From an uncultured Candidatus Saccharibacteria bacterium (lineage in GTDB: Bacteria; Patescibacteriota; Minisyncoccia; UBA6257; 2-01-FULL-56-20), in NCBI GenBank assembly GCA_964387675.1, contig CAYLWL010000004.1:1-61814 (forward strand): a DNA stretch of 61,814 nucleotides, written 5' to 3'. The notes beneath the pieces are model-generated. The model had not been told where the DNA came from. It saw nothing but the letters and a program-made list of their open reading frames with translations, and made no database searches. Made by a program: the position numbers and the translations under genes. This document shows, piece by piece, positions 4,256-59,844 of the stretch; position 1 is the stretch's first letter, and each line of letters starts with the position of its first letter.

Positions 4256-4282
4256 CCTCTATTGTATCAAATTGCTTCGAGA

Positions 4283-4314
4283 TAAAAAAGGCGCGCCGAC
4301 CAGTGCCGGCGCGC
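4283..4314 (-). terminator. Rho-independent terminator after adenosine deaminase gene
   Basis: GCGCGCCG-8nt-CGGCGCGC stem followed by CTTTTTT on the minus strand. Confidence 0.7.
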
Positions 4315-4331
4315 ATACAAAACCGTAATCG

Positions 4332-5429: not shown

Positions 5430-5502
5430 TATTCACTCCAAATTCAAAATATTGCTAAGAGTCATCCTAGTAGATTTACGGCATTATGCAATGCCATGCT
5501 AC

Positions 5503-5536
5503 AACATCCTTACAAACTCCAGTTTATAAGGATATT
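5503..5536. repeat. Palindrome family P1, copy 1 (AACATCCTTACAAAC-TCCA-GTTTATAAGGATATT)
   Basis: Matches copies at 21204, 59387 and 59729; overlaps the stop codon of the DUF192 gene. Confidence 0.9.
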
Positions 5537-6017
5537 ACTTTAGGAAAACCTCGTCGCCAGCCTTGATTCCGTTCTTCGCAACGAAACCGGCGTTCACTTC
5601 AAGCACGGAGTCGATAGCGTCGGGAGGGTAATATATTTTCAAACCCCAGACGTGCTTGCCCGGCTCGGGCACGGCATTCTCGGAAAATCCCGCGACCCTC
5701 CCGTCTCGGATCCAAATCATGTCAATGGGAAACTTCATATCTTTCATCCAAAATCCATAGTTGCCCTCTTTGTCGAAAATAAAAAACATCCCCTCCCGCT
5801 CTCCCAGGGAATCTCTGCCGGAGAGACCCCACATTTTCTCCGTCGCTCCCCGCGCGACTTCGATAGACAAGGTTTTTCCGCCGATTGAGAGTTCCGACTT
5901 GGGAAGAGATTTCGCCCCGCCGCGGAACACGAAAAAGGCGAAGGCAAAAATCAATGCCGCGGAAACAATCCCGATGAAAAGCAGAAAAATCAAAAATTCC
6001 ATCCTAAAAGAACCCAT
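5535..6017 (-). CDS. DUF192 family protein with N-terminal TM anchor
   Basis: GLSGR..L...GMFF.F, FWMKDMKFPIDMIWI, VLEVNAG pattern. Confidence 0.88.
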   Translation of the reverse strand: MGSFRMEFLIFLLFIGIVSAALIFAFAFFVFRGGAKSLPKSELSIGGKTLSIEVARGATEKMWGLSGRDSLGEREGMFFIFDKEGNYGFWMKDMKFPIDMIWIRDGRVAGFSENAVPEPGKHVWGLKIYYPPDAIDSVLEVNAGFVAKNGIKAGDEVFLK

Positions 6018-6040
6018 CCTGTTCGTATTATAACAAAGTT

Positions 6041-6090
6041 AAGATCGTTTCCGTTATAACATAATATTATGTTATAACGGAAACGATCTT
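6041..6090. repeat. Palindrome family P2, copy 1: perfect 50-bp palindrome
   Basis: AAGATCGTTTCCGTTATAACATAAT|ATTATGTTATAACGGAAACGATCTT with no mismatch and no loop; 36-bp core repeated at 48466. Confidence 0.95.
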
Positions 6091-6109
6091 TCTTTTCTTT
6101 AATCCGGAG

Positions 6110-6141
6110 AAAAAATCCCACACAGGCGCGCGCCTGTGTGG
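6110..6141 (-). terminator. Rho-independent terminator of the sigma54-activator gene
   Basis: Perfect CCACACAGGCGC/GCGCCTGTGTGG stem followed by GATTTTTT on the minus strand, 7 nt after the stop. Confidence 0.75.
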
Positions 6142-6147
6142 ACTTCA

Positions 6148-7410
6148 CTACGACTTTTTGAGACCCAATCTTTTGATGTCGTTCAGGAGGCTCTTATATG
6201 ATCTGCCCGCTCTTCGCGCCACCTGGCGCTTGTTCCACCGGCACTCCGCAAGAAGTTCGAGTAGATATTCTCTGGCCGCTTTGTCGGCTGCGGTCTGCAT
6301 AACTTCTTCGAGCGATCTCGTCGTATCAACGCCCGCCTCTTCCTCTTTCCGAACTGCGGTTCTCGTCCACTGCGCCACAAGGAACCTTCTTGATACGTCT
6401 TCCGCGGAAATCTCCGGCCCTACCGCGAAAATCGAGGCCGCCTCGATCACTTCGCGCAATTGACGGACATTTCCCGGCCAGCGGTACGAAAGAAGAACCT
6501 CCTCGGCTTCGGGAGAAAGAAAAAACGGTTTTCCTTTCTGCCTCGGCGTACAATGCTTGAGAAATTCCTTCGCCAGAAACAAGATGTCTGCCGGCCTCTC
6601 GCGAAGCGGCGGGACACAGATTTTCACGACACCAAGCCGCCAGAAGAGATCTTCGCGGAACTTCTTTTCTTCCACGAGACGGCAAAGATCCTGGTTGCTC
6701 GCCGCGATTACGCGAACATCCACGGTCTTGCTCGTCGGAGAGCCGACCACGGCGATCTCGCCGCTTTCGAGCACCCGGAGCAATCTTGTCTGCACACTCC
6801 AGCTCATATCGGCAATCTCGTCGAGGAAGAGGGTGCCTCCATCGGCCGCCGCGAATTTTCCGATTGTCTTTTTGTCGGAACCAGTAAAGGCGCCGCGCTC
6901 GTGTCCGAAAATCTCCGATTCGATGAGCGTCTCGGGGACCGCCGAGCAGTTGAATGCTATGAACGGGTTATGCCTGCGAGGGCTGTTCGCGTGAATAGTT
7001 TTCGCGACGATTTCTTTGCCCGAACCGCTTTCTCCGTCGATCACGACGGTGCAGTCGGCCGGAGAAACCAGAAGCAAAATCGGGGCGAGTTCTCGCCGCA
7101 AATCGTCTCCCACGCTCACTGCCCAATCGAGCCAGTTTGGTTCCGGCATCCGCTTTTCCCCTTCTCTTTCTCGCTTATCGCCTTCCGCACCCTGCCCCGT
7201 CGCAGGAGGAACGGTTTCGGTGGCATCCGCGCCTTCTTTTTGCGAAGCTCCCGGAGGGATTGTTTCGATTCCCTTGTCCCCTTCTTCTGTTCGGGGAAGA
7301 GGAGAAAACGGTTCGCCTAACGACCTCTGGAGATCAGCCAGGTCAGCTGCCGAGTTCACCGCAATAGCCATCTCTGCCTCACTTATCAAAATTGATTTGC
7401 TAGCAACCAT
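6148..7410 (-). CDS. Sigma54-dependent enhancer-binding protein (AAA+ and Fis-type HTH), no receiver domain
   Basis: GESGSGKE, ESEIFGHERGAFTGS, LFLDEI, FREDLFWRL, WPGNVRQL, C-terminal HTH. Start uncertain (7410, 7371 or 7149). The track's 7824 start overlaps infC and is rejected. Confidence 0.9.
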   Translation of the reverse strand: MVASKSILISEAEMAIAVNSAADLADLQRSLGEPFSPLPRTEEGDKGIETIPPGASQKEGADATETVPPATGQGAEGDKREREGEKRMPEPNWLDWAVSVGDDLRRELAPILLLVSPADCTVVIDGESGSGKEIVAKTIHANSPRRHNPFIAFNCSAVPETLIESEIFGHERGAFTGSDKKTIGKFAAADGGTLFLDEIADMSWSVQTRLLRVLESGEIAVVGSPTSKTVDVRVIAASNQDLCRLVEEKKFREDLFWRLGVVKICVPPLRERPADILFLAKEFLKHCTPRQKGKPFFLSPEAEEVLLSYRWPGNVRQLREVIEAASIFAVGPEISAEDVSRRFLVAQWTRTAVRKEEEAGVDTTRSLEEVMQTAADKAAREYLLELLAECRWNKRQVARRAGRSYKSLLNDIKRLGLKKS

Positions 7411-7497
7411 TATATGCCGCTGCCAGCGTAATGTCAATCTTTTTCCGGCTTTGACAATGAAAGTCGCGGAGTGTACACTGAATGCAATTATTAACCG

Positions 7498-7989
7498 GTG
7501 AAGATTAACACACAAATAACCGCTCTTGAACTGCGGGTCATCGATGAGCAAGGGAACAATCTCGGCGTTTTGAAGCGCGAGGAAGCCCTCGCCCTCGTGA
7601 AACCGGGGATCGACCTCATCGAGATCGTGCCGACGGCGAAACCCCCCGTCGCTCGGCTCATGAGTTTCGACAAGTACCGATACGAAAGAGCCAAGCAGGA
7701 AAAGAAGGAGCGGATGGCGCAGAAAAGCACTTCGCTCAAGCAGGTGCAAATCACGGCACGAGCCGCTACCAACGACCTGATGATCAAAGTCCGGCAATTG
7801 GAAAAATTTCTCGAAGAGGGTCATACGGTGGAAATCAATTTATTCCTCCGCGGCCGCGAGAAATATAACAAAGAATGGGCCCGGCAAAAGTTAGACGAAT
7901 TTTTAAAGATGATAACCGCGGAATATAAACGGCTCACCGAGCCGAGATTCGGCGGAAGAGGAATGACGATGCAAATTAGTAAAAAGTAA
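7498..7989 (+). CDS. infC: Translation initiation factor IF-3
   Basis: IN..I...ELRVID, DLIEI.PTAKPPVARLM, followed by rpmI-rplT. Confidence 0.95.
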   Translation: MKINTQITALELRVIDEQGNNLGVLKREEALALVKPGIDLIEIVPTAKPPVARLMSFDKYRYERAKQEKKERMAQKSTSLKQVQITARAATNDLMIKVRQLEKFLEEGHTVEINLFLRGREKYNKEWARQKLDEFLKMITAEYKRLTEPRFGGRGMTMQISKK

Positions 7990-7991
7990 GT

Positions 7992-8071
7992 AGACATGAG
8001 ATATGAGAAATGAGGAACGCCGAACTATTTCATTTCTCCCCCTCATCTCTCATTTCTAACTTCTCATATCT
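7992..8071. repeat. Mirrored heptamer-period tract (AGAYATG arm / CTCATYT arm)
   Basis: agacatg agatatg agaaatg ... ctcattt ctaactt ctcatat between infC and rpmI. Confidence 0.75.
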
Positions 8072-8077
8072 ATCATC

Positions 8078-8245
8078 ATGAAAAAAAGCTTATCAAAACG
8101 AATCCGAATAACGAGAACCGGAAAACTGATCCGACGCCCCATGGCGGTCGATCATTTCCGCACACGATCCACCGCAAAAAAGATCAGAGGAAAGAGAAAG
8201 TCGAGATCGATTGACTATTTGAGGAAAAAAATACTCAATTATTAG
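8078..8245 (+). CDS. rpmI: 50S ribosomal protein L35
   Basis: Below track cutoff. Manual translation MKKSLSKRIRITRTGKLIRRPMAVDHFRTRSTAKKIRGKRKSRSIDYLRKKILNY; position between infC and rplT. Confidence 0.88.
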   Translation: MKKSLSKRIRITRTGKLIRRPMAVDHFRTRSTAKKIRGKRKSRSIDYLRKKILNY

Positions 8246-8250
8246 CAAAA

Positions 8251-8318
8251 GGCCGAGGGCGAAGGGCAAAGAGATCGTTAGCGATATACCCTTAGCTCTC
8301 AGCTCTTTGCCCTTAGCC
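8251..8318. repeat. Mirrored heptamer-period tract (GGCRAAG arm / CYCTTWG arm)
   Basis: ggccgag ggcgaag ggcaaag ... cccttag ctctcag ctctttg cccttag between rpmI and rplT. Confidence 0.7.
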
Positions 8319-8326
8319 AATACACC

Positions 8327-8671
8327 ATGCCACGAGTCAAACGAGGAAAACACGCCCATAAACACCGGGAGAAACTCTTGAAACATACCAAGGGCTTCCG
8401 TTGGGGGCGCAAATCGAAAGAGCGGGCCGCGAAAGAGGCCTTACTGCACGCCTGGTCTCGCGCGTTCCGCGGCAGAAAAGAAAAGAAGAGGGTTTTCCGA
8501 CAACTTTGGAACGTCCAGATTAACGCGGCCTCCCGCGAGCACGGAACCAAATACAGCGCCCTCATATCCGCCCTCCAGAAAAAGAAAGTGAAAATAGATC
8601 GGAAGATGCTTGCCGAGCTCGCGAAAAACGAACCTGCCGTGTTCAAAAAGATTGTTGAATTTGTTCGTTAG
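8327..8671 (+). CDS. rplT: 50S ribosomal protein L20
   Basis: MPRVKRG, FRQLWNVQINAASR, IDRKMLAELA. Confidence 0.97.
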   Translation: MPRVKRGKHAHKHREKLLKHTKGFRWGRKSKERAAKEALLHAWSRAFRGRKEKKRVFRQLWNVQINAASREHGTKYSALISALQKKKVKIDRKMLAELAKNEPAVFKKIVEFVR

Positions 8672-9138
8672 CGCCGCCGCAGGATATAATCGTTCGCCTG
8701 TTTCAACACTTTCTTGGTAGATTCGTATTTGTTACCCAGGGCCTTGAGAGCGTCGGGATAGGTGAACCACGCGAAGCCGCTGTGCTCTCGGGGCAAGATG
8801 CGTATGTCGGCCCGCCTGGTTTCCGCAAGATACAAAATGACCGTATCATAAATCCCCTGCTTGCCTACCCGGAAATAAAACCGTTCATACGCCCTGAATC
8901 CGTGGATAATGCGCAGGTCGGATTTATGCAATCCCGTTTCCTCCCTCACTTCGCGGAGCGCGGTGTCGATGCTATTCTCGCCCGGTTCAAAATGGCCTTT
9001 CGGAAAATTCCAATATGTTCCCCGCCGGTACAAAAGAAGAAATTTAATGCCCTCGTGAGTGCGGCGATAGACCACAAAACCGGCGACGATCTGCTGTTTC
9101 ACATTTCTAACTCCGGACTTATATGGCGGTTTATCCAT
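8668..9138 (-). CDS. NUDIX hydrolase (Ap4A hydrolase-like)
   Basis: Nudix box WNFPKGHFEPGENSIDTALREVREETG. Confidence 0.9.
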   Translation of the reverse strand: MDKPPYKSGVRNVKQQIVAGFVVYRRTHEGIKFLLLYRRGTYWNFPKGHFEPGENSIDTALREVREETGLHKSDLRIIHGFRAYERFYFRVGKQGIYDTVILYLAETRRADIRILPREHSGFAWFTYPDALKALGNKYESTKKVLKQANDYILRRR

Positions 9139-9141
9139 GGC

Positions 9142-10893
9142 TTATTTCAAAGATTTTAACATTTTTAACATCTCCTCTAATGGCCAAGCATTGACAACAT
9201 CTCTCCGCTTTGCCCAGCCGCGCCTTGCTTGAGCGACACCGTACTCGAGATACGCAAAATGAGTCGGCGAATGGGCGTCGGAGTCGATGGACATTTTCAC
9301 GCCGGATGCAACGCACTTTCTCACATATTCGTCTTTCAAATCGAGCCGGTCGGGATAGGCGTCAATCTCCATAACGGTGCCCGTCTTTTTTGCCGCCGAA
9401 ATCAATTCGTCCATGTTGACCTCATAGGCCTCGCGCTTATTGATAATCCGGCCGGTCGGATGAAACAGTATATCGACGTGCGGATTTTCCATCGCTTTCC
9501 TAATTCTCTTAGTTTGCGCTTCGCGGGGCAAATTGAAATACGAATGCACCGAAGCCCCCACGATATCGAGCTTCGACAAAATCCTGTCGGGCAAATCGAG
9601 CGAGCCGTCTTTCAAAATATCGCATTCGCTTCCTTTCAAAATTTTTATTTTGCCGGCGAATTTTCTGTTCAGCCGATCGATTTCCGCCATTTGTTTCAAA
9701 AGCCGTTTTTCGTCCAATCCGTGTGTCATAGCAAGCCGCTTGGTGTGGTCAGTGATCGCAATATAGGCGAGGCCATGTCTGATTGCGGCTCGTGCCATAT
9801 GTTCAATCGAATCGGATCCGTCGGTCCAGTTCGTCTGCACCTGGAGATCTCCCCTTAAATCACCATACGCTATAAGTTTGGGGAGTTTGTGGTTTTTAGC
9901 GGCTTCGATTTCTCCGGTATTCTCCCGCATTTCCGGCTCAACATAATCCAGCCCCAACGCTTTATAAATTTCTTCTTCGGTTTCTCCGGCAACTATTTGC
10001 TCTTTGCCCTTTGCTATTCGCCATAATCCGTACTCGTTCAATTTATATCCTTTTTTCATCGCTATCTGCCGCAAAGCGACGTTATGGCTTTTGGAGCCGG
10101 TAAAATAGCTCAAGGCCGCGCCGTACGATTCCGGAGCAACCACGCGCACATCGACATCAAACCCGGATTTCATTTTCACGGCGGACTTGGTGGCTCCGTG
10201 CGCCAACACGCGAACAACTCCGGGCATCTTGGTAAAACGATCTATAGCTTCCAAGGCCGCTCTTTTTTCCTTTACCGTAACCAGGATGTCGACGTCGCCG
10301 ATCGTTTCTTTCATCCTCCGCGTGGAGCCGGCGACGACCAGTTTATCAACCCCATGAATCCGCCGAAGCCGATCCGCGATGGCTCTGATCTCGGGCATCA
10401 CAAACCCCAACACGAACCGCCCTTCGGATTTTTTCATAAAGCCGATCCCTTTCAAAATATTTTCTTCGCTCTTCTTGCCGAAGCCCTCGAGCTTGCCGAT
10501 ACGCCCGGCGAGCGCCGCCTTCTCCAAATCCTTCAAGTCCTTAATCCTCAGCTTTTCGTAAAGTTTCTTGATGGACTTCGGCCCCAAACCCTCAATCCCG
10601 CGAAGCTCGGCAAGATTGACCGGGGTTTCCTTTTTCAGTTTCTCGTAGTATTTGAGGCGGCCGGTTTTTATAAGCTCTTCGATTTTTTCTGCAATGGAGA
10701 CACCGACACCGGGAATGTCTTCGACTGCTCGTATGCCTCCTTTACGGTAGATTTCTCCGGCTTCTTCTTCTAATCCCTCAATCACGCCGGCAACCTTTTC
10801 GTACGCCCGTGGCTTGAAGGGCACGTCTTGCATCTCAAGATACGCCGCAATTTCGTAGAGTATTTCGGCTATCTGTTTATTAGAAATCGGCAT
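9142..10893 (-). CDS. polX: DNA polymerase X / PHP 3'-5' exonuclease
   Basis: HhH motifs, GSTRR, GDVDIL, YFTGSK.HN, C-terminal PHP domain (ITDH, HPTGR, DSDAH). Confidence 0.95.
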   Translation of the reverse strand: MPISNKQIAEILYEIAAYLEMQDVPFKPRAYEKVAGVIEGLEEEAGEIYRKGGIRAVEDIPGVGVSIAEKIEELIKTGRLKYYEKLKKETPVNLAELRGIEGLGPKSIKKLYEKLRIKDLKDLEKAALAGRIGKLEGFGKKSEENILKGIGFMKKSEGRFVLGFVMPEIRAIADRLRRIHGVDKLVVAGSTRRMKETIGDVDILVTVKEKRAALEAIDRFTKMPGVVRVLAHGATKSAVKMKSGFDVDVRVVAPESYGAALSYFTGSKSHNVALRQIAMKKGYKLNEYGLWRIAKGKEQIVAGETEEEIYKALGLDYVEPEMRENTGEIEAAKNHKLPKLIAYGDLRGDLQVQTNWTDGSDSIEHMARAAIRHGLAYIAITDHTKRLAMTHGLDEKRLLKQMAEIDRLNRKFAGKIKILKGSECDILKDGSLDLPDRILSKLDIVGASVHSYFNLPREAQTKRIRKAMENPHVDILFHPTGRIINKREAYEVNMDELISAAKKTGTVMEIDAYPDRLDLKDEYVRKCVASGVKMSIDSDAHSPTHFAYLEYGVAQARRGWAKRRDVVNAWPLEEMLKMLKSLK

Positions 10894-10896
10894 AGA

Positions 10897-10995
10897 TCCA
10901 AATCAAAGATCAAAAGTCAAAATGAAAGATTGAAAATGAAAAAATACTTTGAATTTTGCATTGTCATTTTAATATTTGATTTTTGATTTTTAATC
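10897..10995. repeat. Mirrored heptamer-period tract (CAAARAT arm / ATTTTTG arm)
   Basis: A-rich 7-nt-period arm and complementary T-rich arm upstream of polX. Confidence 0.7.
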
Positions 10996-11004
10996 TTCCC
11001 TAGT

Positions 11005-11649
11005 TCACAACGTCTTGTGATCTTGAATCACGGGTTTCGCGGCAGCTGCCTTCGGCAACACAATATCCGGCACCATAATAAGGATGAGGGCCGAAACAGC
11101 GGATAAAACTCCGACCGAAACAAAAACCGCCGAGAATCCAAGCCAGCTCGCGACTATGCCCCCCACAAGACCGCTCACTCCTGTCGCGATTCCGATTGCG
11201 GTGCTGTCCAGCGCCCAGTCAAAAGAGACCCGATCTTTATCAAGATGTCGCGAAAAAATTGACTGCCAAGAAACCGCGTACAACGCCAACCCCGCGGCGT
11301 GCAGGGCTTCCACGATATACACTCCGCCAGCCGTTTGCACCAGAACGAAAGCGAAGGCGCTTAGAGACGCGATAATCAAGCCAACGATGAGGGCGTAAAA
11401 ATCGTCTTTTTCTCCGTCCGTCCGATCCAAAAAACTTGCCAACGGCAACTGGATTACGGACCTCGTAATCCAATAGGTGGCCGCAGCGATACCTACCGTG
11501 ACCAATGTGGCGCCCGGAATCTGTTGAACTATAAAAACGGAAAAAACGGGGGACATCATGCCCCAGCCGCTCCAGAAAACAAGGTCACTGATGATAAAGT
11601 ACTTCACCAGGCGATTCACTTTTATGTCGATATTGATGTGGATGCGCAT
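11005..11649 (-). CDS. Half-size MFS transporter (about 6 TM)
   Basis: 214 aa, hydrophobic helices, MFS-like LASFLDRTDG loop. Confidence 0.75.
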   Translation of the reverse strand: MRIHINIDIKVNRLVKYFIISDLVFWSGWGMMSPVFSVFIVQQIPGATLVTVGIAAATYWITRSVIQLPLASFLDRTDGEKDDFYALIVGLIIASLSAFAFVLVQTAGGVYIVEALHAAGLALYAVSWQSIFSRHLDKDRVSFDWALDSTAIGIATGVSGLVGGIVASWLGFSAVFVSVGVLSAVSALILIMVPDIVLPKAAAAKPVIQDHKTL

Positions 11650-11655
11650 ACTGAG

Positions 11656-11717
11656 TAGATATTAGAAATTAGAGATGAGAAATTAGGTCGTTAAACGTTC
11701 CTAATGTCTCATGTCTA
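11656..11717. repeat. Mirrored heptamer-period tract (AGAAATT arm / CTAATGT arm)
   Basis: tagatat tagaaat tagagat gagaaat tagg ... cctaatg tctcatg tcta. Confidence 0.65.
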
Positions 11718-11726
11718 TTTTCTTTT

Positions 11727-14249
11727 TTATCCTTCGACAAACTCGACTTCCTCGCCCACCACCTTTAATGTTATGCTACTCCCTCTCGAAACCTTCTGTC
11801 TCAAGATTTCTTCGGCAAGCGGGGCCCGCAATTTCTCATCGATCACTCGCCGCAGGGGCCTTGCCCCGAACGCCGGTTCATAACCCCACTTGGCAAATTG
11901 TTTGATGACCGACTCGTCGAACTTGAGTTCGATACCCTGGTTTTTGGCGAGCGAAGCCACGTCCTTTAAGTTTAACACCACGATCTTTTCCAGATCGGCG
12001 GGTTCGAGGTCTTTGAAAACCACCACTTTCGTGAATCGGTTCAGCAATTCCGGCCTGAAAACGTCTATCAGTTTTTTCTTGAGGTATTCGGCGATGCCCT
12101 TCATCGACTCACCTTGGCTTAGGGCCTGGTTGATAATATCCGAATGGGCATTCGAAGTTGCGATAATAATCGAGTTTTCGAAACTGGCAACGCGCCCCAG
12201 GTTGTCGGTCAGCCGCCCGTCGTCGAAAACCTGCAAAAACAAATTCAAAATGTCCGGGTACGCTTTTTCAAACTCGTCCAAAAGAACCAAACTGTACGGC
12301 TTCTGCAGCATTGCGTCGGTGAGGGCCCCCGAAACCGTTCCGTCCGGAGAACCGATGAATCGATAAAAACTCTGCTTGTCCTGGTATTCCGTCATATCGA
12401 ACCGGATCATTTCCCGCTCCGAACCGAACTGTATCTTCGCGAGAATTTTCGCGAGCTCCGTCTTTCCCACGCCGGTCGGCCCGACAAACAAGAAACTCGC
12501 GATGGGGCCGCCGGAGCGCGTAAGGCCGCTTCGATATTCCCGCAAAGAATCCGAGACGACGCGCACGGCTTCCTCTTGGTCGATGAGCCGCTCGTGAATC
12601 AACGCTTCGAGATTCAGCAACTTTTGCGCCTCTTCTCCTCTCGCTTCGTGGATGGGAACGTGCACTTTCTGTTCGGCAACGCTCTCAACGATTGCCGGCC
12701 CCAGAAACTTTTCTTCCCGCCGCTTGGTTTCCGTCAAGGCGCTTTTCAAGAGCTCTTCGGCGCTCGACGGCAAGAATTTGTTCCTGAAGTACTTTTTGGC
12801 CAAAAATACGGCTTTCTTCACAGCCCCGAAGCTGATCGTCACTCCGAATTGATTTTCTAGGAGCAAACTTTCGTATATCAGCACCTTCTTGGCGTCAAGC
12901 TCGGAAATCTCCTGCACCCGTATCACTTCGAACGCTCCCGAAAAGTCGCTTCTCGGCTCTATCCACTGTTTGAACTCGCGCGGATACGTCGCCCCGATCA
13001 CGGGAAAACTGTTGCTCATGATAATGGGCATCAGGGCGTCCGCGGCGGACAGATACGCCGTTCCCGACGTGCGAACCAAATTATGAATATTCGGCATGTA
13101 AAGGATCACGTTGCCCGCCACCAAAATTTCCTCGACGATCGTCTTGAGGCGCGCGTTCAACTCTTCGGGCGGCGCCCCGGCAACCAAACTTTCGAGTTCC
13201 AGAGCGACGAGGCGCTTGTCAAAAAGCGGCGGCGGGACTTCGTCTTTGGATAATCGGAAAGCCAGATGCGCCACCATCGTCTCTTTGCCGATGCCCGCCT
13301 CGCCCACCAAAAGAGCATTGGGGCTTATCGGCCGAGCCAATGTGTTCATCAGCAGATCGAACTCTTCCGTATGGCCAACCAGAAATCCGACTTCGTTTTG
13401 CCTCGCGAGATCCGTGAGGTCTTCCGCGTACCTGTCGAGCGTCGGAGTAGGCCGGGCCGTCCACGCCCGGTTCATAATCCGATGCCTCACGTTCGTTTGC
13501 GAACCCGACACAAAACCGCCGAGCGCTCTCGGTAGCTTTTTCATGAAACCCTGGCGCTTTACGGAACTGAAAATCAAAGCGAGTTCCAAATCGCCGATTT
13601 CTATGGAGAACGTATTCAGAACCCTTTCGATGGCGGGATCGCCCGCGGCGGCTAATCCGGAAAAAAGATCGCCGAGCTCGATACACTGGTGCTTGGCCTT
13701 CACGGCTTCCGCGAATGATTTGAGAACCAGAAGTTCGACGCTTGCCATCCTTTCTTGTTTGGAGAACATCTTCGAGGCATCGTTCGGTTTCAACAACTCT
13801 TCGATCTTTTGTCTGAATTCTTCCGGGGACACGTCGAGCCGCTTCAGCCCTTCGCTTATCTGGCGAAACGCGAGAAGTCCGCGGGCTACCTCGAGAAAAA
13901 AGTTCTGCCGTGGAATAAAAACGCTCCGGTCGAACGCCCGTTCAATGACGGAAAAAGACCTCGGCTTCACATACGCCGCCGCGTTGATCTTGCCGAACAA
14001 GGGCATTTCGGAGATCTGGCGATCCGCTTCGCTCCAATGTCTCGCTCGCTGGATCAAAAAGAGAACCAAGAGAACTCCTGTGGCGCGAAGCCACTCTACA
14101 TCCGTCACAAGAAACGTCGCGGCCGCCACGATCGTGACAAGATATCCGATATAGGCGGAGATTCTCACCAAAAGCCGGCCGGGAACCGTCATCCGCAAAC
14201 GCGGCTCGTCGAAATAGAATTCGCGGTCAGAAGAGGTGGCTTGCGGCAT
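11727..14249 (-). CDS. ClpA/B-type AAA+ ATPase with N-terminal TM segments and degenerate first AAA domain
   Basis: D1 Walker A GEAGIGKET, Walker B replaced by LYMPNIH; D2 GPTGVGKT, LLDEFEK, FRPELLNR, GARPLRR. Confidence 0.9.
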   Translation of the reverse strand: MPQATSSDREFYFDEPRLRMTVPGRLLVRISAYIGYLVTIVAAATFLVTDVEWLRATGVLLVLFLIQRARHWSEADRQISEMPLFGKINAAAYVKPRSFSVIERAFDRSVFIPRQNFFLEVARGLLAFRQISEGLKRLDVSPEEFRQKIEELLKPNDASKMFSKQERMASVELLVLKSFAEAVKAKHQCIELGDLFSGLAAAGDPAIERVLNTFSIEIGDLELALIFSSVKRQGFMKKLPRALGGFVSGSQTNVRHRIMNRAWTARPTPTLDRYAEDLTDLARQNEVGFLVGHTEEFDLLMNTLARPISPNALLVGEAGIGKETMVAHLAFRLSKDEVPPPLFDKRLVALELESLVAGAPPEELNARLKTIVEEILVAGNVILYMPNIHNLVRTSGTAYLSAADALMPIIMSNSFPVIGATYPREFKQWIEPRSDFSGAFEVIRVQEISELDAKKVLIYESLLLENQFGVTISFGAVKKAVFLAKKYFRNKFLPSSAEELLKSALTETKRREEKFLGPAIVESVAEQKVHVPIHEARGEEAQKLLNLEALIHERLIDQEEAVRVVSDSLREYRSGLTRSGGPIASFLFVGPTGVGKTELAKILAKIQFGSEREMIRFDMTEYQDKQSFYRFIGSPDGTVSGALTDAMLQKPYSLVLLDEFEKAYPDILNLFLQVFDDGRLTDNLGRVASFENSIIIATSNAHSDIINQALSQGESMKGIAEYLKKKLIDVFRPELLNRFTKVVVFKDLEPADLEKIVVLNLKDVASLAKNQGIELKFDESVIKQFAKWGYEPAFGARPLRRVIDEKLRAPLAEEILRQKVSRGSSITLKVVGEEVEFVEG

Positions 14250-14577
14250 AGATGATTAAAACGAGCGGGACGAGAAGCCACATCACGTAGACGATGAAAA
14301 ACACGACGGCGATAAAAAGATACACGGCGCCGCCGATGAGAATTCTGCCCGACCTGAACACCATCCCCAAAATTCTGCCCAAGAATGTGTAGTCCTTATA
14401 GAGCGGTTCGAAGAAGTGCTGAAGGGTGATCTTGATGGCGAACGTCCGGTCGAGACGCTCAAGAAACGATATAAAGGCGCGGGCGAGAACCCGGGAAGCG
14501 TGGAAATACCAGTGATGAAAAAAATCCGCCACGCGGTACAAAAAACGATTGACTATGTAAACCAAGGCGAAGTCCAT
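14227..14577 (-). CDS. Small membrane protein overlapping the Clp ATPase start
   Basis: ATG 14577 (MDFALV) lies 6 nt after a TATAAT; C-terminal TM hairpin; overlaps the Clp ORF by 23 nt. Confidence 0.75.
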   Translation of the reverse strand: MDFALVYIVNRFLYRVADFFHHWYFHASRVLARAFISFLERLDRTFAIKITLQHFFEPLYKDYTFLGRILGMVFRSGRILIGGAVYLFIAVVFFIVYVMWLLVPLVLIIYAASHLF

Positions 14578-14642
14578 AGGTTCATTATAACTGACCCTTA
14601 TAAAAGAAAGAAACGGCCCGTAGGAATACGGGCCTTGTTCTA

Positions 14643-16421
14643 TCAGAAAAATCTCCATGAGCCGTCAAGATAGGAATCCGCGACAAAACGCGCGCGTCCA
14701 ATGCAGTCCTTTGATTCATACTTGGTAAGTCTTCGTATCACCGACTGATACACCCTCAATTCATCCCCCTCCGCAAGCCGCCCGGCTACGTCGCGCGCTT
14801 CAATCGCTATCTTCTTTACGGCATCGTCCACCGCGATTTCCGCAATCCCCACCTCAACCTCGGCCGGCGCGCCGCGCGCTAGTTTCTTTCTTGTTCTCAC
14901 AAGACCGCTCTCCAGAGCAAACACATACATCGCGCAATTCATGATTTTCGCGAGCACTTCCTGCTCGTCGGGAAGCTGTTTGTGCCACTTTTGGACGCTT
15001 GCGCCCAAAAGGAGAACGGTCAGCTTCTTAAGGCCGAGAAGGGCCTCCCATTCCGGAGCAAGCGGATTTTCTTTTCCGAGTTCCGCAAGCGCGGGACCGC
15101 CGGTCAGTTCTTCAAAATATTTTTGGGCAGAAGCGAAGATTGGCAGGGTTCCTTTTTGGGTTTGATCCGAACGAATCATTCTGTCCGCCGCAAACAAACG
15201 GTTGATTTCGTTTGTTCCCTCAAAAATCCTGTTCACTCGCGCGTCGCGATAGGCGCGCGCCGGCGGCGATCCGTGTTCAAAACCCATGCCGCCGTAGATC
15301 TGCAAACACTCATCGATCACTTCATCGAGCATCTCCGAAGCGAAAACTTTGTTGATCGAGCATTCGGCGGCGTATTCGGCGACCGCCGCCATCACCGCCT
15401 TCGTGTCTTCCGTGTCAACTCCTTTAAGCGCGTCTTCCAGGAGCCCCGCGGTGCGATACAAGGCTGATTCGGCAAGCCATAGTTTCGCGATCATTGTCCC
15501 GAACTTATTTTTGATGAGCCCGAACGACGCGATCGGCTTTCCAAAAGCGACGCGCATCCTTGCGCGAACCGAGGTTGGAACAAGAAGCGCCTTCGCTCCG
15601 CCGACACAGCCGGCGGCAAGCTTGAGGCGTCCGAGATTCAAGATGTTGAGCGCTATCTTAAAACCTTCACCGACTTCGCCCAGAACATTTTCTTTCGGAA
15701 CGGGAGTGTTATCGAAAGTCAGCGGACACGTTGACGATCCGTGAAGTCCGAGCTTGTGTTCTTCGGGACCAATAACGAAACCGGGGGAACCTCTCTCGAC
15801 AAGAAACGCGGTAATTTTCTTGGGGTCGCCGTCGACTTTCGCGAAAACCGTGAAGAGATCGGCAAAGCCGGCGTTGGAAATCCAGATTTTTTCTCCGTTC
15901 AAGATATAGTGAGTCCCCTCCGGAGACAAAATCGCGTTCGCCTTTATCGCGGCGGCATCGGATCCGGCAGATGACTCGGTAAGCGCGTAGGCGCCCACGA
16001 GATCCGCCTGCGTCAGACGTTTGAGATATCTCTTCTTTTGCTCGGCATTTCCAAAAAATCTCAAAGGGAGCGTGCCGATGCCGATGTGAGCCGCAAAGGC
16101 GACCAAAAAGTAAGAAGAGGCGCCCAATTTTTCGCTAATAATCGCGGAGGCAATCTTGTCAAAATCCAAACCTCCCCATTCTTCCGGGATATCAGCGCCG
16201 AGAAGCCCCAGTTCGGCAGACCGCTTCAATAATCCCCTCACTACGTCAAACCGCTTCTCTTCAAATTGAAGTTCCTGAGGCAGAATTTCTCTATCAAGAA
16301 ACTCCCTGGTTGTCTGCGCAATAAGCCGATGATCCTCGGTAAAATCTTCCGGAGTAAAAACGTCTTCCGGCGAAGCCGATGAAATCAAAAAGGAACAGCC
16401 GGGAACTTTTACGGCATCCAT
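14643..16421 (-). CDS. Acyl-CoA dehydrogenase (long FadE-type)
   Basis: AYALTESSAGSDA, GEKIWISN, LNLGR, IFEGTNEINR. Confidence 0.92.
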   Translation of the reverse strand: MDAVKVPGCSFLISSASPEDVFTPEDFTEDHRLIAQTTREFLDREILPQELQFEEKRFDVVRGLLKRSAELGLLGADIPEEWGGLDFDKIASAIISEKLGASSYFLVAFAAHIGIGTLPLRFFGNAEQKKRYLKRLTQADLVGAYALTESSAGSDAAAIKANAILSPEGTHYILNGEKIWISNAGFADLFTVFAKVDGDPKKITAFLVERGSPGFVIGPEEHKLGLHGSSTCPLTFDNTPVPKENVLGEVGEGFKIALNILNLGRLKLAAGCVGGAKALLVPTSVRARMRVAFGKPIASFGLIKNKFGTMIAKLWLAESALYRTAGLLEDALKGVDTEDTKAVMAAVAEYAAECSINKVFASEMLDEVIDECLQIYGGMGFEHGSPPARAYRDARVNRIFEGTNEINRLFAADRMIRSDQTQKGTLPIFASAQKYFEELTGGPALAELGKENPLAPEWEALLGLKKLTVLLLGASVQKWHKQLPDEQEVLAKIMNCAMYVFALESGLVRTRKKLARGAPAEVEVGIAEIAVDDAVKKIAIEARDVAGRLAEGDELRVYQSVIRRLTKYESKDCIGRARFVADSYLDGSWRFF

Positions 16422-16478
16422 GGAAACCTCCGTTTTTCAATCCTTCTGCGGTTAATGTACCGCTTGTCGGGGCGGAGG

Positions 16479-17108
16479 TCAATAGAACAGCGACTGGCCT
16501 TTCTTGGGTTTTTTTGCGGCTTCTACTCGCTGGGGCAATGCTTCTTCCGTGAGCGAACTTCCGGTTTTAATTATCTGCGGCAGTTTGCGAAAACTTTCCC
16601 GCAACTGGTTTGTGACTTCCGTTGAGCGAAGCGCGGCCGCGGGATGGAAGAGCGGCACAATCAATCGTCCGCCAATTTTAAAAACCTTCCCCTGATCGCG
16701 GCTGATTTTCGCTTCGGGCAAAAAATAGTTCATCGCGAAGCGGCCGAGAGGAACAATAACTTTCGGACTAATAATTTCTATTTGCCGCGTGAGGTACGGC
16801 TTATATGATTCTATTTCTTCGGGGAACGGGTCTCTGTTCTCCGGCGGGCGGCGCTTCACGATATTCGTAATGTACACATCCTCGCGCTTCCAGCCGACTT
16901 CTTTCATTAATTGGTCGAGGAGCTGCCCTCCGCGGCCCACGAACGGGCGCCGCAATTCATTTTCATGAAATCCCGGCGCCTCGCCCACGAACATCACCAC
17001 GCAATCGGGACTCCCTTCACCGAAAACCAAACTCGATTCTTGGAGAGGCAAAGATTTGTCGGAGGCGATTTCCGATTCTAACTTCTTAAGTTTTGCGAGC
17101 TTATCCAT
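16479..17108 (-). CDS. udg: Family 4 uracil-DNA glycosylase
   Basis: GEAPG, RPFVGRGG, YITNIVK.RPP.NRDP, HPAA.LR. Confidence 0.93.
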   Translation of the reverse strand: MDKLAKLKKLESEIASDKSLPLQESSLVFGEGSPDCVVMFVGEAPGFHENELRRPFVGRGGQLLDQLMKEVGWKREDVYITNIVKRRPPENRDPFPEEIESYKPYLTRQIEIISPKVIVPLGRFAMNYFLPEAKISRDQGKVFKIGGRLIVPLFHPAAALRSTEVTNQLRESFRKLPQIIKTGSSLTEEALPQRVEAAKKPKKGQSLFY

Positions 17109-17295
17109 TAATCAAGTTATATTATACGAAATTCGGCTTGTCTTCGAAACAATAGTGACGCCACTATGCTATAGCATAGTACTATGACAGAGAGCATCGG
17201 CGGTGCGTGATACATGATAGGGAGTATAGATTTGTAATCAAAAGGTTCTCGTGTTAAAAAGAAAGGTAGAAGAACTTGAAATTTGGGGGTGAAGC

Positions 17296-17514
17296 TTGGC
17301 TCACGAAGCAAAGGTAGAAAAAACCGGAAAAACGGTGATCGTGCATCAAAAGTTACAGTCAGAGCCAATCGTCCTTGAGGACGTATTTAACTCATATGAA
17401 AAGGGGTCGTTTTTCTGTGTGATGATGGACGCTGATGGAAGGGTTACCTACAAATTCCCGATAGCAGACATCTGGCGCGTTACCGAAATCGGAAATCGCG
17501 TTTACGAGAATTAA
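17296..17514 (+). CDS. Small phage-like hypothetical protein
   Basis: 72-aa ORF with TTG start, coupled to the next ORF (1-nt gap), opposite strand to its neighbours. Confidence 0.6.
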   Translation: MAHEAKVEKTGKTVIVHQKLQSEPIVLEDVFNSYEKGSFFCVMMDADGRVTYKFPIADIWRVTEIGNRVYEN

Positions 17515-17515
17515 T

Positions 17516-17830
17516 ATGGAGAATAAACCTGCCATGCCAAAACTAACCCGCGAACAAGTACGCACGATTGTTGATGAAGAAGCGCGTTTTTCCGAAAAGT
17601 GGGATCGAGAGCGTCCGCCGGGAACCATCGCCGATGCCGACAAGCCAGTTGAAGTCTGGCTCGCGTGGATGATGGTATATCTACAGGAAGCGATGAAAGC
17701 GACCGTACTTGGCTATGACAAGACAGCCGCCCTTCACAATCTTCGTTGCGTCCTCAATCTCGGAGAAGCTTGTGCCCAGCACCACGGGCTACCTCAACGC
17801 ACTGAAGACGACAAGAAAGATATCTACTGA
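17516..17830 (+). CDS. All-alpha MazG-like nucleotide pyrophosphohydrolase (phage-type), tentative
   Basis: Helical pattern EE..F.EKW...PVEVWL..M..YL.EA...ALHNLRCV..LGEACAQHHG resembles short phage MazG-like proteins; recognised by eye only. Confidence 0.5.
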   Translation: MENKPAMPKLTREQVRTIVDEEARFSEKWDRERPPGTIADADKPVEVWLAWMMVYLQEAMKATVLGYDKTAALHNLRCVLNLGEACAQHHGLPQRTEDDKKDIY

Positions 17831-17892
17831 TTGCCTGCGACGTCTCGTCGCACAACGCTATCTCGATCGGCTGCCGCGCGGCAGCCGGTTTT

Positions 17893-20517
17893 TTATCCGC
17901 TTGCTTCGCTCGCGGAGGAGGGTAAACGAAAAACTCTTTTCCCCAGCTCTACGGCAACAATATTCAGCAAACCGACCAGCACGACGCCCAGTAACCAAGA
18001 GGGCGGCAAGGCAACGGTGCCGAGCAAGGATTGCAGGAACGGGACGTAGATCGCCGCAAACATAAGCAAGGTCCCGGCGCCAACCCCCGCCAGCAAGTAA
18101 CGATTCGAGAATACGGGGTACTCCAAAATGCTTTTTTCCAAGCTCCTCACCGAAAAAGCCAGGAAGAGCGTGTAACTTCCGAAGCTTGCGAAAATAAACG
18201 TTTTTACCAAATCCGCGGGGAAGCCAAAGCGCAGCAACAGCCAATATAAGACGAATAACAGGGCGCTTGTTGAGATTCCCACGAATACGATTAAAAACCT
18301 CACCAAGGGGTCGAATAAGCCCTTTTTCATGCTCCTCGGACGACGGGAAAAACCGTCAACATCTTTTTCAAACGCAAACGCGATAGCCGGGAAGCTGTCC
18401 GAAAAAAAGTTTACCCAGAGGAGTTGAAGCGCGTTCAAGGGAAGCGCGAGACCGGTTACGAGGGCGCCTCCGATCAAAAAAAGTTCATCGGTCACGCCCG
18501 AGAGCAGATACACCATCACTTTGCGGATATTATTCAGGATTTTTCTGCCTTCTTCGACAGCGGCGGCGATCGTCTCGAAATTGTCGTCGAGAAGCACGAG
18601 GTCGGCAACATCTCGCGCCACCTCCGTCCCCGATCCCATCGCGATACCCACATCCGCGCGTTGGATGCTCGGCGCGTCGTTCACCCCGTCGCCGGTCATG
18701 GCAACCACCTCTCCCGTCTCCTGGAAAGCGTTCACAATTCTCATTTTGTCCGTAGGCGATACGCGCGAGATAACCCGGAGAAAAGGCAATTTCTCTTTAA
18801 GGTCATGATCCGATAATATCCGAAGCTCCTCGGCGTCAAGCACGCTCTTGCCGTCTATCCGCATGCCCACCTCCCGCGCGATCGATTCCGCGGTGCCGCG
18901 ATGGTCGCCCGTCATAATGACGGTTTTTATTCCCGCCAGCTCAACACGATGCAAGGCGTGCTCGACGCCCGGCCGGATCGGGTCGCGCAAGGTGATCAAT
19001 CCCCGGAAAGAGAGGTGATCAAACTTCAAGTCCTTCGAAAACAGAAAGTCCTTTTTCGCCTCTATTTCTTTGGTTGCCACTCCGAGCACAAGCTCGCCCG
19101 CGCCCGCCAGCGCGTTGATGCTTTCCAAAACCCCGGCTCTTCTTGCGGCATCAAGCGTCGAATGGTTGACGAAAATATCCGGCGCTCCAAAAAAGACCAG
19201 CCGATGCCTTCCGCGGTCGTGTATAAGCGAGGCGGAAAACTTGTTGACCGCGTTAAACGGCAGGAAATTGAGCGTGGAGACCTTCCTTCTGGCCGTTTCG
19301 AGCGTTATGCCCCGGAGCGCGGCGGATCGCACGAGCGCAGCTTCCAACGCCCGGCCATTGATTCGCCATTCGGGCGGAGGATCTTGCGGGTTCTCTACGA
19401 GAACGCTGGTATTCAAAAGCGCGGATTCAAGCACTTCCGCTTCTTTCCCTTCCTCCACCGGCAATATTTTGCCGAGTTCCATTTTCGCCATGGTGAGGGT
19501 TCCCGTTTTATCGGTCAGAATAACCGTGGTACTGCCCAAGGACTCCGCGGCAACCAATTTTCTCACCACGCCCTTGCGCCGCGCCATGCGCTGTACTCCT
19601 ATCGCGAGAATAATGGTCATCGCGACCGGAAGCCCCTCGGGAACCGCGGAGACAACGATCGCAACCGATGTAAGAAACATTTCCGCGACAGAGTGCCCCA
19701 CGGCAACGCCAATGCCGAAAATGACCAGCGTAAGAACGCCCAACAACGCTCCCGCTTGTATGCTAAAACGCTTAATCGCTTTCTGTAACGGCGTTTCTTC
19801 CCTGCTGGATTCGGCGACAAGGGACGCGATTTTCCCCAATTCCGTGGAAAGATCGGTGCGGCAAACTATGGCAGTGGCAACGCCCTGCACCACAAGCGTG
19901 CCCGCGAAAATCATGGAGTGCTGGTTGCCCAAAGCCGCGTCGGCCTTCACCGGCTCAACCGACTTGGAAACGGGCAAGGACTCGCCGGTAAGAATCGACT
20001 CGTCAACCTGCAAATCGTTCACGAAGAAGAGACGTCCATCCGCCGGAACGCGATCCCCTTGAGTGAGACGGATAATATCTCCCGGCACGAGCATTGCCGA
20101 GTCAATTTCGCGTTCGGCGTCGCCGCGAATAACCCGCGACCGCTGTTTCAGATACGTTTTGAGTTCCCCGAGGGCTTTCTCGGCTTTATACTCCTGATAA
20201 AAACCCAGAGCGGCGTTCACGACAACGGCGGCAAGAATAAAGAAGGCGTCGCGATGATGAGAAATAAAAAACATAACCACGCCCGCAAAAAGCAGGGTTG
20301 CGATCAGCGGACTCTTAAACTGGTTTAACAGAAGAAGCAGGCGGGCGGGCGCCTGCCGTTTTTCAATCACGTTCGGGCCGAAGGTTTTTAACCGCGTTTC
20401 GGCTTCATCTTCCGAGATGCCGCTTTGAAGGTCTGTTTGCGCTATCTCGGCAACCTCCTGCGCGGAGAGTGCCCAGAAAAAACGTTTTTGCGATTCACCG
20501 ATGGATTCTTCCCGCAT
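17893..20517 (-). CDS. Cation-transporting P-type ATPase (type II, Ca2+-like)
   Basis: TGES, PEGL, DKTGTLT, TGD, GDGVNDAP. Confidence 0.95.
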   Translation of the reverse strand: MREESIGESQKRFFWALSAQEVAEIAQTDLQSGISEDEAETRLKTFGPNVIEKRQAPARLLLLLNQFKSPLIATLLFAGVVMFFISHHRDAFFILAAVVVNAALGFYQEYKAEKALGELKTYLKQRSRVIRGDAEREIDSAMLVPGDIIRLTQGDRVPADGRLFFVNDLQVDESILTGESLPVSKSVEPVKADAALGNQHSMIFAGTLVVQGVATAIVCRTDLSTELGKIASLVAESSREETPLQKAIKRFSIQAGALLGVLTLVIFGIGVAVGHSVAEMFLTSVAIVVSAVPEGLPVAMTIILAIGVQRMARRKGVVRKLVAAESLGSTTVILTDKTGTLTMAKMELGKILPVEEGKEAEVLESALLNTSVLVENPQDPPPEWRINGRALEAALVRSAALRGITLETARRKVSTLNFLPFNAVNKFSASLIHDRGRHRLVFFGAPDIFVNHSTLDAARRAGVLESINALAGAGELVLGVATKEIEAKKDFLFSKDLKFDHLSFRGLITLRDPIRPGVEHALHRVELAGIKTVIMTGDHRGTAESIAREVGMRIDGKSVLDAEELRILSDHDLKEKLPFLRVISRVSPTDKMRIVNAFQETGEVVAMTGDGVNDAPSIQRADVGIAMGSGTEVARDVADLVLLDDNFETIAAAVEEGRKILNNIRKVMVYLLSGVTDELFLIGGALVTGLALPLNALQLLWVNFFSDSFPAIAFAFEKDVDGFSRRPRSMKKGLFDPLVRFLIVFVGISTSALLFVLYWLLLRFGFPADLVKTFIFASFGSYTLFLAFSVRSLEKSILEYPVFSNRYLLAGVGAGTLLMFAAIYVPFLQSLLGTVALPPSWLLGVVLVGLLNIVAVELGKRVFRLPSSASEASG

Positions 20518-21074
20518 TACAGTGTTTTCGCAATCAAACCGACCAAAAAGATGCCAACGAAGTTAGAAACCAGCGAAAGAGGGATGAACCAAAACGTCCC
20601 CATCTTCGAAAAACCCAAGAGCCCGATCCCCAGCTCGTCGGGGAGGGGAGAGGCGAGGATCAATCCTCCCGCGAAAAACGTCAGCCACCTCACCATTCTC
20701 AACCGCAACAACGCCTTGACTCTCTTGCTTGGTTTTTGGTGACTCAACAACTCCGCGAGGTGCTCGGAGGCCATGTCTCGGACAAAACGGAAGATGATTA
20801 AATCTCCAACCGTCGCCCCCAACGCCCCGACAAGAGCCGTCAGCGCCACGGAATTCGCTCTCGCAATTTCGCCAAGCGTAACGAGCGCCGGAGCAGTGGT
20901 GAAAACCGAGGTAAAAAACAAACCGGCGATAAAGGTCCCTATGAGTTTGGTCTCCCGCGTCGAGGTCAATATCTCCGCAAGAACCCCCGTCTTCACCAAC
21001 ATCAACGCGATAACAATACTAAGAGCAATTATCCCGACATCTCTCATGAAACCGTTTGTGTGATTTTTTTTCAT
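20517..21074 (-). CDS. Membrane protein (DedA/VTT-like), coupled to the ATPase by TAATG
   Basis: 185 aa, about 5 TM, SPLPDELG motif; stop overlaps the ATPase start. Confidence 0.7.
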   Translation of the reverse strand: MKKNHTNGFMRDVGIIALSIVIALMLVKTGVLAEILTSTRETKLIGTFIAGLFFTSVFTTAPALVTLGEIARANSVALTALVGALGATVGDLIIFRFVRDMASEHLAELLSHQKPSKRVKALLRLRMVRWLTFFAGGLILASPLPDELGIGLLGFSKMGTFWFIPLSLVSNFVGIFLVGLIAKTL

Positions 21075-21085
21075 GATCTTTTGTG

Positions 21086-21157
21086 TGCGCTCGCGGGGAA
21101 TTGAACCTCGATCTCATCCTTCGGAGGGATGCATTCTATCCGTTGAACTACGAGCGC
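21086..21157 (-). tRNA. tRNA-Arg(CCG)
   Basis: GCGCTCG/CGAGCGC acceptor stem, CATCC-CT CCG AA-GGATG anticodon arm, GGTTCAATTCC T arm. Confidence 0.95.
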
Positions 21158-21203
21158 TTTCCCGTTTATCCTAGAACCCAGCTCAAAAATAATCAATTCG
21201 CAC

Positions 21204-21237
21204 AACATCCTTACAAACTCCAGTTTGTAAGGATGTT
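21204..21237. repeat. Palindrome family P1, copy 2 (perfect 15-bp arms)
   Basis: AACATCCTTACAAAC-TCCA-GTTTGTAAGGATGTT between the permease stop and tRNA-Arg. Confidence 0.92.
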
Positions 21238-59383: not shown

Positions 59384-59423
59384 AACAACATCCTTACAAA
59401 CTCCAGTTTGTAAGGATGTTGTT
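59384..59423. repeat. Palindrome family P1, copy 3 (perfect 18-bp arms)
   Basis: AACAACATCCTTACAAAC-TCCA-GTTTGTAAGGATGTTGTT between the HTH stop and the argS start. Confidence 0.95.
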
Positions 59424-59712: not shown

Positions 59713-59753
59713 ATTATATACAACACAGAACATCCTTACAAACTCCAGTTTGT
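59713..59753 (-). promoter_or_regulatory. HTH gene promoter overlapping P1 copy 4 (59729-59753)
   Basis: TTGTAA (59736-59741, inside the palindrome) -17nt- TATAAT (59713-59718); the first 25 nt of P1 are exact and the distal arm is degenerate. Confidence 0.75.
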
Positions 59754-59809
59754 GGGTGTATTATATAAAACGGGTGGCAAAGAAAAAACTGTGTGTATAA
59801 TCTCATGAT

Positions 59810-59844
59810 AAAAAGAGAGCTCCGCCAAATATGGCGAAGCTTTT
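59810..59844 (-). terminator. Terminator-like hairpin after the DUF4159 gene
   Basis: AGCT.CGCCA/TGGCG.AGCT stem with T-runs on both strands. Confidence 0.55.

Follow-up and report, generated by a model that had tools for sequence, protein, structure and literature searches.

Lineage-specific copies of a 34-nt palindrome are candidate binding sites of a small winged-helix protein in a Candidatus Saccharibacteria genome

The window analysed here is one whole contig of 61,814 nucleotides (nt) from an uncultured Candidatus Saccharibacteria bacterium (CAYLWL010000004.1, assembly GCA_964387675.1). It carries four copies of a 34-nt palindrome, AACATCCTTACAAAC-TCCA-GTTTGTAAGGATGTT. Two copies bracket a gene encoding a helix-turn-helix (HTH) protein of 91 amino acids (aa) upstream of argS, and two orphan copies lie elsewhere, one ahead of the adenosine deaminase gene add and one ahead of tRNA-Arg(CCG). 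The original prediction, made from the letters of the window, had explained the orphans either as a regulon of add, tRNA-Arg and argS or as scars left where the HTH cassette had inserted and excised. We consider it fairly probable that they are extra copies of the cognate site of the HTH protein, belonging to an order-wide family and acquired recently in this lineage, rather than parts of a conserved regulon. The palindrome copies and the HTH gene with its promoter are as follows.

5503..5536, no strand assigned: orphan palindrome copy 1, with two mismatches, both G>A, in the right arm
21204..21237, no strand assigned: orphan palindrome copy 2, perfect
59387..59420, no strand assigned: downstream bracket of the HTH gene, perfect copy
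59430..59705, minus strand: ArsR-family winged-helix gene, 91 aa, cysteine-free
59713..59741, minus strand: HTH promoter TTGTAA-17-TATAAT, with the -35 hexamer inside the palindrome and TATAAT 7 nt before the ATG
59729..59762, no strand assigned: upstream bracket, half-degenerate (right arm with five mismatches), over the HTH promoter

As the original prediction had proposed, we scanned the whole assembly (781 kb in 15 contigs, 95.7% complete) for the 34-mer. Four copies were found, all on this one contig, and dinucleotide-preserving shuffles gave no match (0/100). Both orphans are present as described, and the TCCA loop indeed has a common orientation: it lies on the plus strand in 4/4 copies, and the sense strand of the minus-strand genes accordingly has TGGA. 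The copy at 5503-5536 overlaps the stop codon of a DUF192 gene (5535-5537) and lies 73 nt 5' of the add ATG. The copy at 21204-21237 is found 12 nt past the stop codon of a permease gene (21250-21252) and 46 nt 5' of tRNA-Arg(CCG), and that at 59387-59420 lies 9 nt past the HTH stop codon (59430-59432) and 13 nt ahead of the argS ATG. These three copies, at 0-12 nt from the stop codon of a minus-strand gene, have no U-tract 3' of the stem, as had been noted, and a terminator scan called none of them. In the fourth copy (59729-59762) the left arm and the loop are retained together with six right-arm bases, and its intact arm contributes the TTGTAA -35 hexamer of the HTH promoter. Only at the HTH gene is TTGTAA followed by a convincing -10 hexamer (TTGTAA-17-TATAAT, 10/12), in agreement with the original prediction. 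The best pairings were TTGTAA-16-GATTAT (8/12) at tRNA-Arg and TTGTAA-21-CATAAT at add, no -10 partner was found at argS, and promoter and terminator scans at the two orphan copies found nothing.

The 91-aa protein matches the Pfam family HTH_5 (4.8e-6, 26.8 bits; cut-off 22), and its closest solved relatives in the PDB are ArsR, CadC and HlyU (E about 1e-3). About 17 of 60 related genomes have homologues with 56-81% identity, and others have remoter paralogues (39-44% identical). A palindrome lies 14-57 nt 5' of the start codon in nearly all homologues, and in most of the closer relatives a second palindrome either overlaps the stop codon or lies a few bases away from it. The layout of the window recurs in about 20 orthologues and paralogues, where the upstream copy is in every case immediately next to a TATAAT that stands 6-8 nt ahead of the ATG, a pattern suggestive of autoregulated, leaderless genes. 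The mRNA of the window's HTH gene, with 7 nt between TATAAT and ATG, is probably leaderless. At the HTH gene (59703-59718), at the gap gene (4253-4275) and in many relatives, a TATAAT-like box stands 5-8 nt ahead of the ATG and there is no Shine-Dalgarno sequence, which suggests that leaderless mRNAs are common in the clade.

In about 20 genera, HTH orthologues and paralogues stand between palindromes, and the sequence of the palindrome varies with that of the protein. Type ACATCCTTACAAAC accompanies the HTH gene in the window genome (G000) and in G015, G018 and G030, and type ACATACCAAC in G009, G017 and G023. Remoter orthologues have type ACATTC(C/T)NAC and distant paralogues type CTATTCT; the types other than that of the window include ACATTCCAAC, ACATACCAAC and CTATTCT. 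A second HTH paralogue in the window genome (C1:157726-158031, 39% identical) has CTATTCTAGTATTC-type (CTATTCT) palindromes of its own on both sides. At least two palindromes were present in 12/13 genomes with a close HTH compared with 5/22 without one (Fisher p = 8e-5; genomes searched both ways). From the sequences we infer that the 34-38-bp inverted repeat is the cognate double-stranded DNA site of the 91-aa protein.

The family extends across the order. A degenerate family pattern was found in 142 of 301 genomes, with 1-17 sites each, and a reversed-pattern control gave 0-3 sites per genome. The consensus is ACA-ACAT[TC]C..A....C-N4-G....T..G[AG]ATGT-TGT. Each arm contains two hexamer sub-repeats, the whole site measures 34-38 bp, and the copies are singlets, of which the window genome has four of the window type.

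The window genome also contains palindromes of other kinds. A different 36-bp perfect palindrome, TTTCCGTTATAACATAATATTATGTTATAACGGAAA, occurs at 6048-6083 and 48466-48501 of the window, with a related copy at 45624-45663; at 21 copies genome-wide, many of them with inverted-repeat flanks, it is far more abundant than the palindrome studied here. Three ACATTCTCAC-type palindromes (C2:43008-43039, C8:4636-4667 and C11:9017-9048) lie upstream of mreB, a gene for a 469-aa membrane protein and a MutY-like gene, and on C8 a CTATTCT-type palindrome is located 24 nt beyond the ACATTCTCAC-type copy. No third HTH paralogue matching the ACATTCTCAC-type palindromes was found in the assembly.

The tabulation of neighbouring genes, also proposed with the original prediction, covered 75 sites in nine genomes of the family and the orphans on 80 metagenome contigs carrying the window's own palindrome type. 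Among the 75 sites, 45 were co-directional, 13 convergent, 8 divergent and 7 intragenic, with 2 at contig ends, and the metagenome orphans comprised 40 co-directional, 13 convergent, 6 divergent and 10 intragenic copies; gene calls in relatives are our own, based on open reading frames and codon bias, and some of these context classes may be wrong. Many orphans fill a whole short spacer, 1-5 nt past one stop codon and 8-16 nt before the next start, so that no promoter can fit there, and the distance from orphan to downstream start or -10 hexamer is not fixed. The downstream genes in the two samples share no functional theme. They encode TspO, MnmA, Tgt, NYN, RpiB, methyltransferases, Ddl, PLD, a beta-lactamase-fold protein, OTCase, FtsK, NERD, alanine racemase, NUDIX, a restriction enzyme, FKBP, GNAT and a multi-copy Cys-rich protein of about 590 aa with no Pfam match. 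tRNA-related genes recur near palindromes, but genes of this kind abound in these tiny genomes. The Cys-rich proteins form tandem arrays with a palindrome 2-3 nt past each stop codon (loci L054, L055, L070, L071, L078, L079 and L068, in G023, G030, G009 and G015).

Family members also lie in frame inside genes and are translated (HSNILKNVGM, YSHILKNMRI, TSLQTGVCKDV). In the window genome, miaA (C7:12754-12785) contains an in-frame CTATTCTCATATTC-TTAA-GAATATGAGAATAG of the same superfamily, giving the peptide YSHILKNMRI. The same MiaA surface loop is filled in five genera (G000, G030, G006, G015 and G009) and holds a palindrome of another family in G028; in about 20 genera it is empty and 4-19 residues, mostly about 10, shorter. 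One spot in MnmA is filled in G003, G009, G030 and G018, and G000 has a degenerate palindrome of another family there. In-gene copies on metagenome contigs were found in AlaRS (two), YchF, PrmC, Ddl, TatD and a type I restriction S subunit. A peptide LIRANRRI, derived from another palindrome type (TTATTC..AATTCGCGCGAAT..), is present in mnmA (C13:14082-14099) and trmD (C8:4952-4969) of the window genome, in mnmA at the position where relatives have the HTH-type palindrome.

The identities of the genes next to the four copies were confirmed (A_deaminase, DUF192, Aa_trans permease, ArgRS, HTH_5 and tRNA-Arg(CCG)). With the terminators and the insert they are arranged as follows.

4256..5534, minus strand: genome-specific insert between DUF192 and gap, comprising the palindrome, add and an intrinsic terminator
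about 4283-4315: canonical intrinsic terminator inside the add insert
4332-5429: add, adenosine deaminase (A_deaminase), inside the insert 4256..5534
5535..6017, minus strand: DUF192 gene, the last two bases of whose stop codon are the first two palindrome bases
21085..21157, minus strand: tRNA-Arg(CCG), confirmed as a tRNA
21250..22371, minus strand: amino-acid permease (Aa_trans), conserved in the family as the gene upstream of tRNA-Arg(CCG)
57667..59373, minus strand: argS (ArgRS), by domain match
59818..59841, minus strand: canonical intrinsic terminator with U-tract after DUF4159

We compared these junctions with relatives at genus level or beyond, a distance at which insertion borders are not resolvable to the base. 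The permease/tRNA-Arg(CCG) junction is conserved in the family, and neither a palindrome nor an HTH gene was found there in 13/13 relatives; G018, which has the same palindrome type as the window, is also empty. In about eight of the 13 the permease ends only 5-50 nt before the tRNA, and the junction is filled in G000 only. In 20 of 29 relatives gap comes directly after DUF192, and in the window genome 1,279 nt separate the two genes; the copy at 5503-5536 forms the left edge of this genome-specific 1.28-kb insert. The add gene was absent from 40/40 other genera sampled. Because it is unique in the family and stands between genes that are adjacent in 20/29 genera, add was probably acquired horizontally. 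A search of genomic contigs for add relatives that might reveal a palindrome-add cassette found none. At argS, 29/29 relatives have no palindrome and no HTH gene within 1.4 kb upstream. Their conserved argS neighbour is a divergent homologue of the gene at 60779-61312(+), so this genome has DUF4159, the terminator and the HTH cassette as additional DNA. The 13-nt gap ahead of argS is too small for a promoter, and argS probably shares with the HTH gene a transcript that runs through the palindrome. Both orphans lie in lineage-only DNA at otherwise conserved junctions, which marks them as recently acquired and not as parts of a conserved regulon.

If the orphans are extra cognate sites, new copies would insert into short spacers, usually just past a stop codon and sometimes in frame inside genes. 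They may arise by direct copying, or by insertion of a cassette and subsequent loss of the HTH gene. The HTH protein would bind the two-hexamer arms as a dimer or a pair of dimers and repress its own leaderless promoter, and a copy once present would probably recruit the protein in trans, where it may roadblock or repress at the orphans. The palindrome centre lies ~38 nt (tRNA-Arg) and ~43 nt (add) 5' of the start expected from the weak -10-like hexamer, compared with ~40 nt at the HTH promoter. Since this spacing resembles that of the HTH gene's own promoter, some repression of tRNA-Arg and add is possible.

Several observations weigh against this reading. Some genomes, e.g. G038, have palindromes without a detectable HTH, and copy number is far below that of classical families of repetitive extragenic palindromic (REP) sequences or of MITEs (miniature transposable elements with inverted repeats). 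The family has no associated transposase, and a search around the copies gave no clear target-site duplication, apart from a 2-nt direct-repeat excess two bases outside the core (12 vs 3.9 expected). The chance of finding an aminoacyl-tRNA synthetase (aaRS) and its cognate tRNA among three neighbours is, by our own estimate, roughly 4e-4. Finally, the arms covary at the variable flank position -2 (53/83 vs 25 expected), and palindromy runs 3-7 nt into copy-specific flanks in ~11% of orphans versus 4% in a shuffled-partner null (metagenome loci L135, L154, L137, L179 and others). Covariation and flank extension hint at a hairpin-dependent step, which a pure protein-site model does not explain.

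A different reading, which we put forward tentatively, treats the palindromes as landing or exchange sites of a cassette system in ultra-small bacteria, with no known recombinase and with the HTH protein as the site-specific partner that marks or controls the sites. Small genes (HTH, perhaps add) would enter and leave at palindromes and leave solo copies behind, and the perfect palindromes in miaA and mnmA across genera would be maintained sites, not debris. When the flanks of every HTH cassette were compared with those of every orphan, one clean occupied/solo pair emerged. On contig L149 a 250-aa gene ends in a palindrome, followed by the HTH gene, a second palindrome and mnmA. On L122 the orthologous gene ends alike in a single palindrome, and the mnmA start follows 10 nt on; the flanking proteins of the two contigs are 79% (250-aa gene) and 61% identical. 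A cassette also precedes mnmA in G018 and G030. Cassettes and solo sites appear from this comparison to interconvert at least sometimes.

The same junction bears on the scar explanation, according to which a palindrome-HTH-palindrome cassette once occupied both window positions and was reduced to a single palindrome when recombination between its copies removed the gene. The HTH gene is flanked by two copies in differing contexts across genomes, and the mnmA-upstream junction, occupied in L149, solo in L122 and cassette-bearing in G018 and G030, gives the idea a precedent as a general process, but not at the two window positions. The proposed search for HTH-occupied alleles in relatives found none: the permease/tRNA-Arg junction is empty in all 13 relatives compared, and no such allele follows DUF192 in 29 relatives. 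There are about two orphans for each cassette copy, an in-frame copy in an essential gene (alaS, ddl) cannot have hosted a 400-bp cassette, and the copy at 5503 flanks the add insert with no HTH footprint. An origin of the two orphans as solo scars is unlikely in our judgement.

We regard a selected, lineage-specific regulon, in which the HTH protein represses or activates add, tRNA-Arg(CCG) and argS in an arginine/translation circuit, as similarly improbable. Its attractions are that the palindrome centre is similarly spaced from the -10-like hexamers of the HTH gene, tRNA-Arg and add, that argS and tRNA-Arg each adjoin a copy, and that tRNA-related genes recur near the family (mnmA, miaA, tgt, alaS, trmD). 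However, none of the three associations was found in any related genus examined (argS 0/29, tRNA-Arg 0/13, add absent 40/40), and the functions of the neighbours are heterogeneous. Convergent and in-gene sites number 13 and 10 on the metagenome contigs and 13 and 7 in the nine genomes, the spacing from orphans to starts or -10 hexamers varies, the -10 candidates are weak and under the scan threshold, and there is no promoter room between the palindrome and argS. The adjacency of tRNA-Arg and argS to palindromes had been called suggestive. The aaRS/tRNA coincidence is notable in view of its low chance probability, but it is absent in 13/13 and 29/29 relatives and nothing else supports selection for it. 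As far as the compared genomes go, the arginine theme is confined to one genome.

A role at the RNA level would make the palindromes transcribed hairpins, acting as U-tract-less terminators, 3'-end stabilizers or processing sites for the upstream genes. Strong hairpins are predicted (-17.3, -23.1 and -29.8 kcal/mol; z -4.6 to -8.3), and their placement 0-12 nt past a stop codon recurs across genomes. However, intrinsic terminators combine a GC-rich stem-loop with a U-tract, which these strong stems lack, whereas nearby genes have canonical terminators; the organism uses ordinary terminators with U-tracts after DUF4159 and add. G.U mismatches do not exceed A.C mismatches in the sense strand (9 vs 11), some genomes have A:A and T:T mismatches near the centre fixed in every copy, and across genera it is the sequence that is conserved, not the pairing. 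An Rfam scan of the window returned two tRNAs only, with no family match for the palindromes. The orientation of orphans to transcription is random (GG 16 vs CC 12 on the 80 metagenome contigs; 4 vs 5 inside genes). A sense-strand GG bias in the nine genomes (11:0) was dropped when it disappeared in the metagenome contigs, and the common loop orientation in the window is consequently not a rule of the family. The comparative signature resembles that of a symmetric, orientation-free double-stranded DNA site and contains no RNA signature, and we consider RNA-level elements highly improbable. Readings as DNA-uptake, parS-like or Ter-like sequences were dropped in view of the low copy number, the lack of a shared orientation, the in-gene copies and the absence of an origin or terminus in the contig, where GC skew is uniformly negative with no switch.

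To our knowledge, Patescibacteria have very few regulators, and we know of almost nothing on their gene control and genome dynamics. In about half of the order's genomes, the family described here couples a dispersed palindrome to a minimal DNA-binding protein. If the HTH protein binds these sites, as our favoured reading of the orphans as extra cognate sites assumes, the pair would constitute a REP-like repeat system with a repressor instead of a transposase as partner, or, alternatively, an example of regulator sites spreading and rewiring neighbouring genes. For annotation, our results caution that adjacency to an aaRS and a tRNA in a single genome should not be read as a regulon.

Among known systems, ArsR/SmtB autorepressors (SmtB, CadC, ArsR, HlyU) share with the window a small winged-helix HTH_5 protein and a palindrome over its own promoter. 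The window protein differs from them in having no cysteines or obvious metal site, the site is longer (34-38 bp, with two hexamers per arm) and has a second copy at the stop codon, and extra copies occupy non-promoter and in-gene positions, with no sites conserved at linked genes in relatives. REP/REPIN-RAYT systems (PMC3116915, PMC3337134) likewise have dispersed short palindromes in spacers at gene ends, a single-copy palindrome-flanked gene, co-variation of repeat and protein, and mainly vertical inheritance. In contrast, the gene here encodes a DNA-binding HTH protein and not an HUH/Y1 transposase, and there are 1-17 singlet copies per genome rather than hundreds and REPIN doublets. An association with RAYT/IS200 elements was rejected: Y1_Tnp (PF01797) occurs in 7/31 genomes with no co-occurrence with palindromes, being absent from the palindrome-rich G018, G015, G017 and G003, and the lone IS200-type Y1 transposase gene of G000 (C1:132199-132561, 85.7 bits) is flanked by hairpins unrelated to the palindrome.

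Rickettsia palindromic elements and in-frame MITEs (PMC10969869) resemble the family in having in-frame, translated copies in unrelated housekeeping genes, and the presence or absence of copies at orthologous sites with in-frame insertion, characteristic of such elements, was found here in miaA and, as a filled site in G000 only, at the tRNA-Arg junction, with further in-frame copies in mnmA, alaS, ychF, prmC, ddl and tatD. They differ in length (about 100-150 bp vs 34-38 bp here); the present family has no clear target-site duplication and has a dedicated DNA-binding partner gene, and both orphan copies in the window are intergenic. Solo-LTR (long terminal repeat) deletion and integron-like exchange offer a further parallel, in that a gene between two sites coexists with solo sites and one occupied/solo pair is known, but here no recombinase was identified and the sites are perfect palindromes, not directional att sites. 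We conclude that the palindrome-HTH family resembles several known systems and is a member of none.

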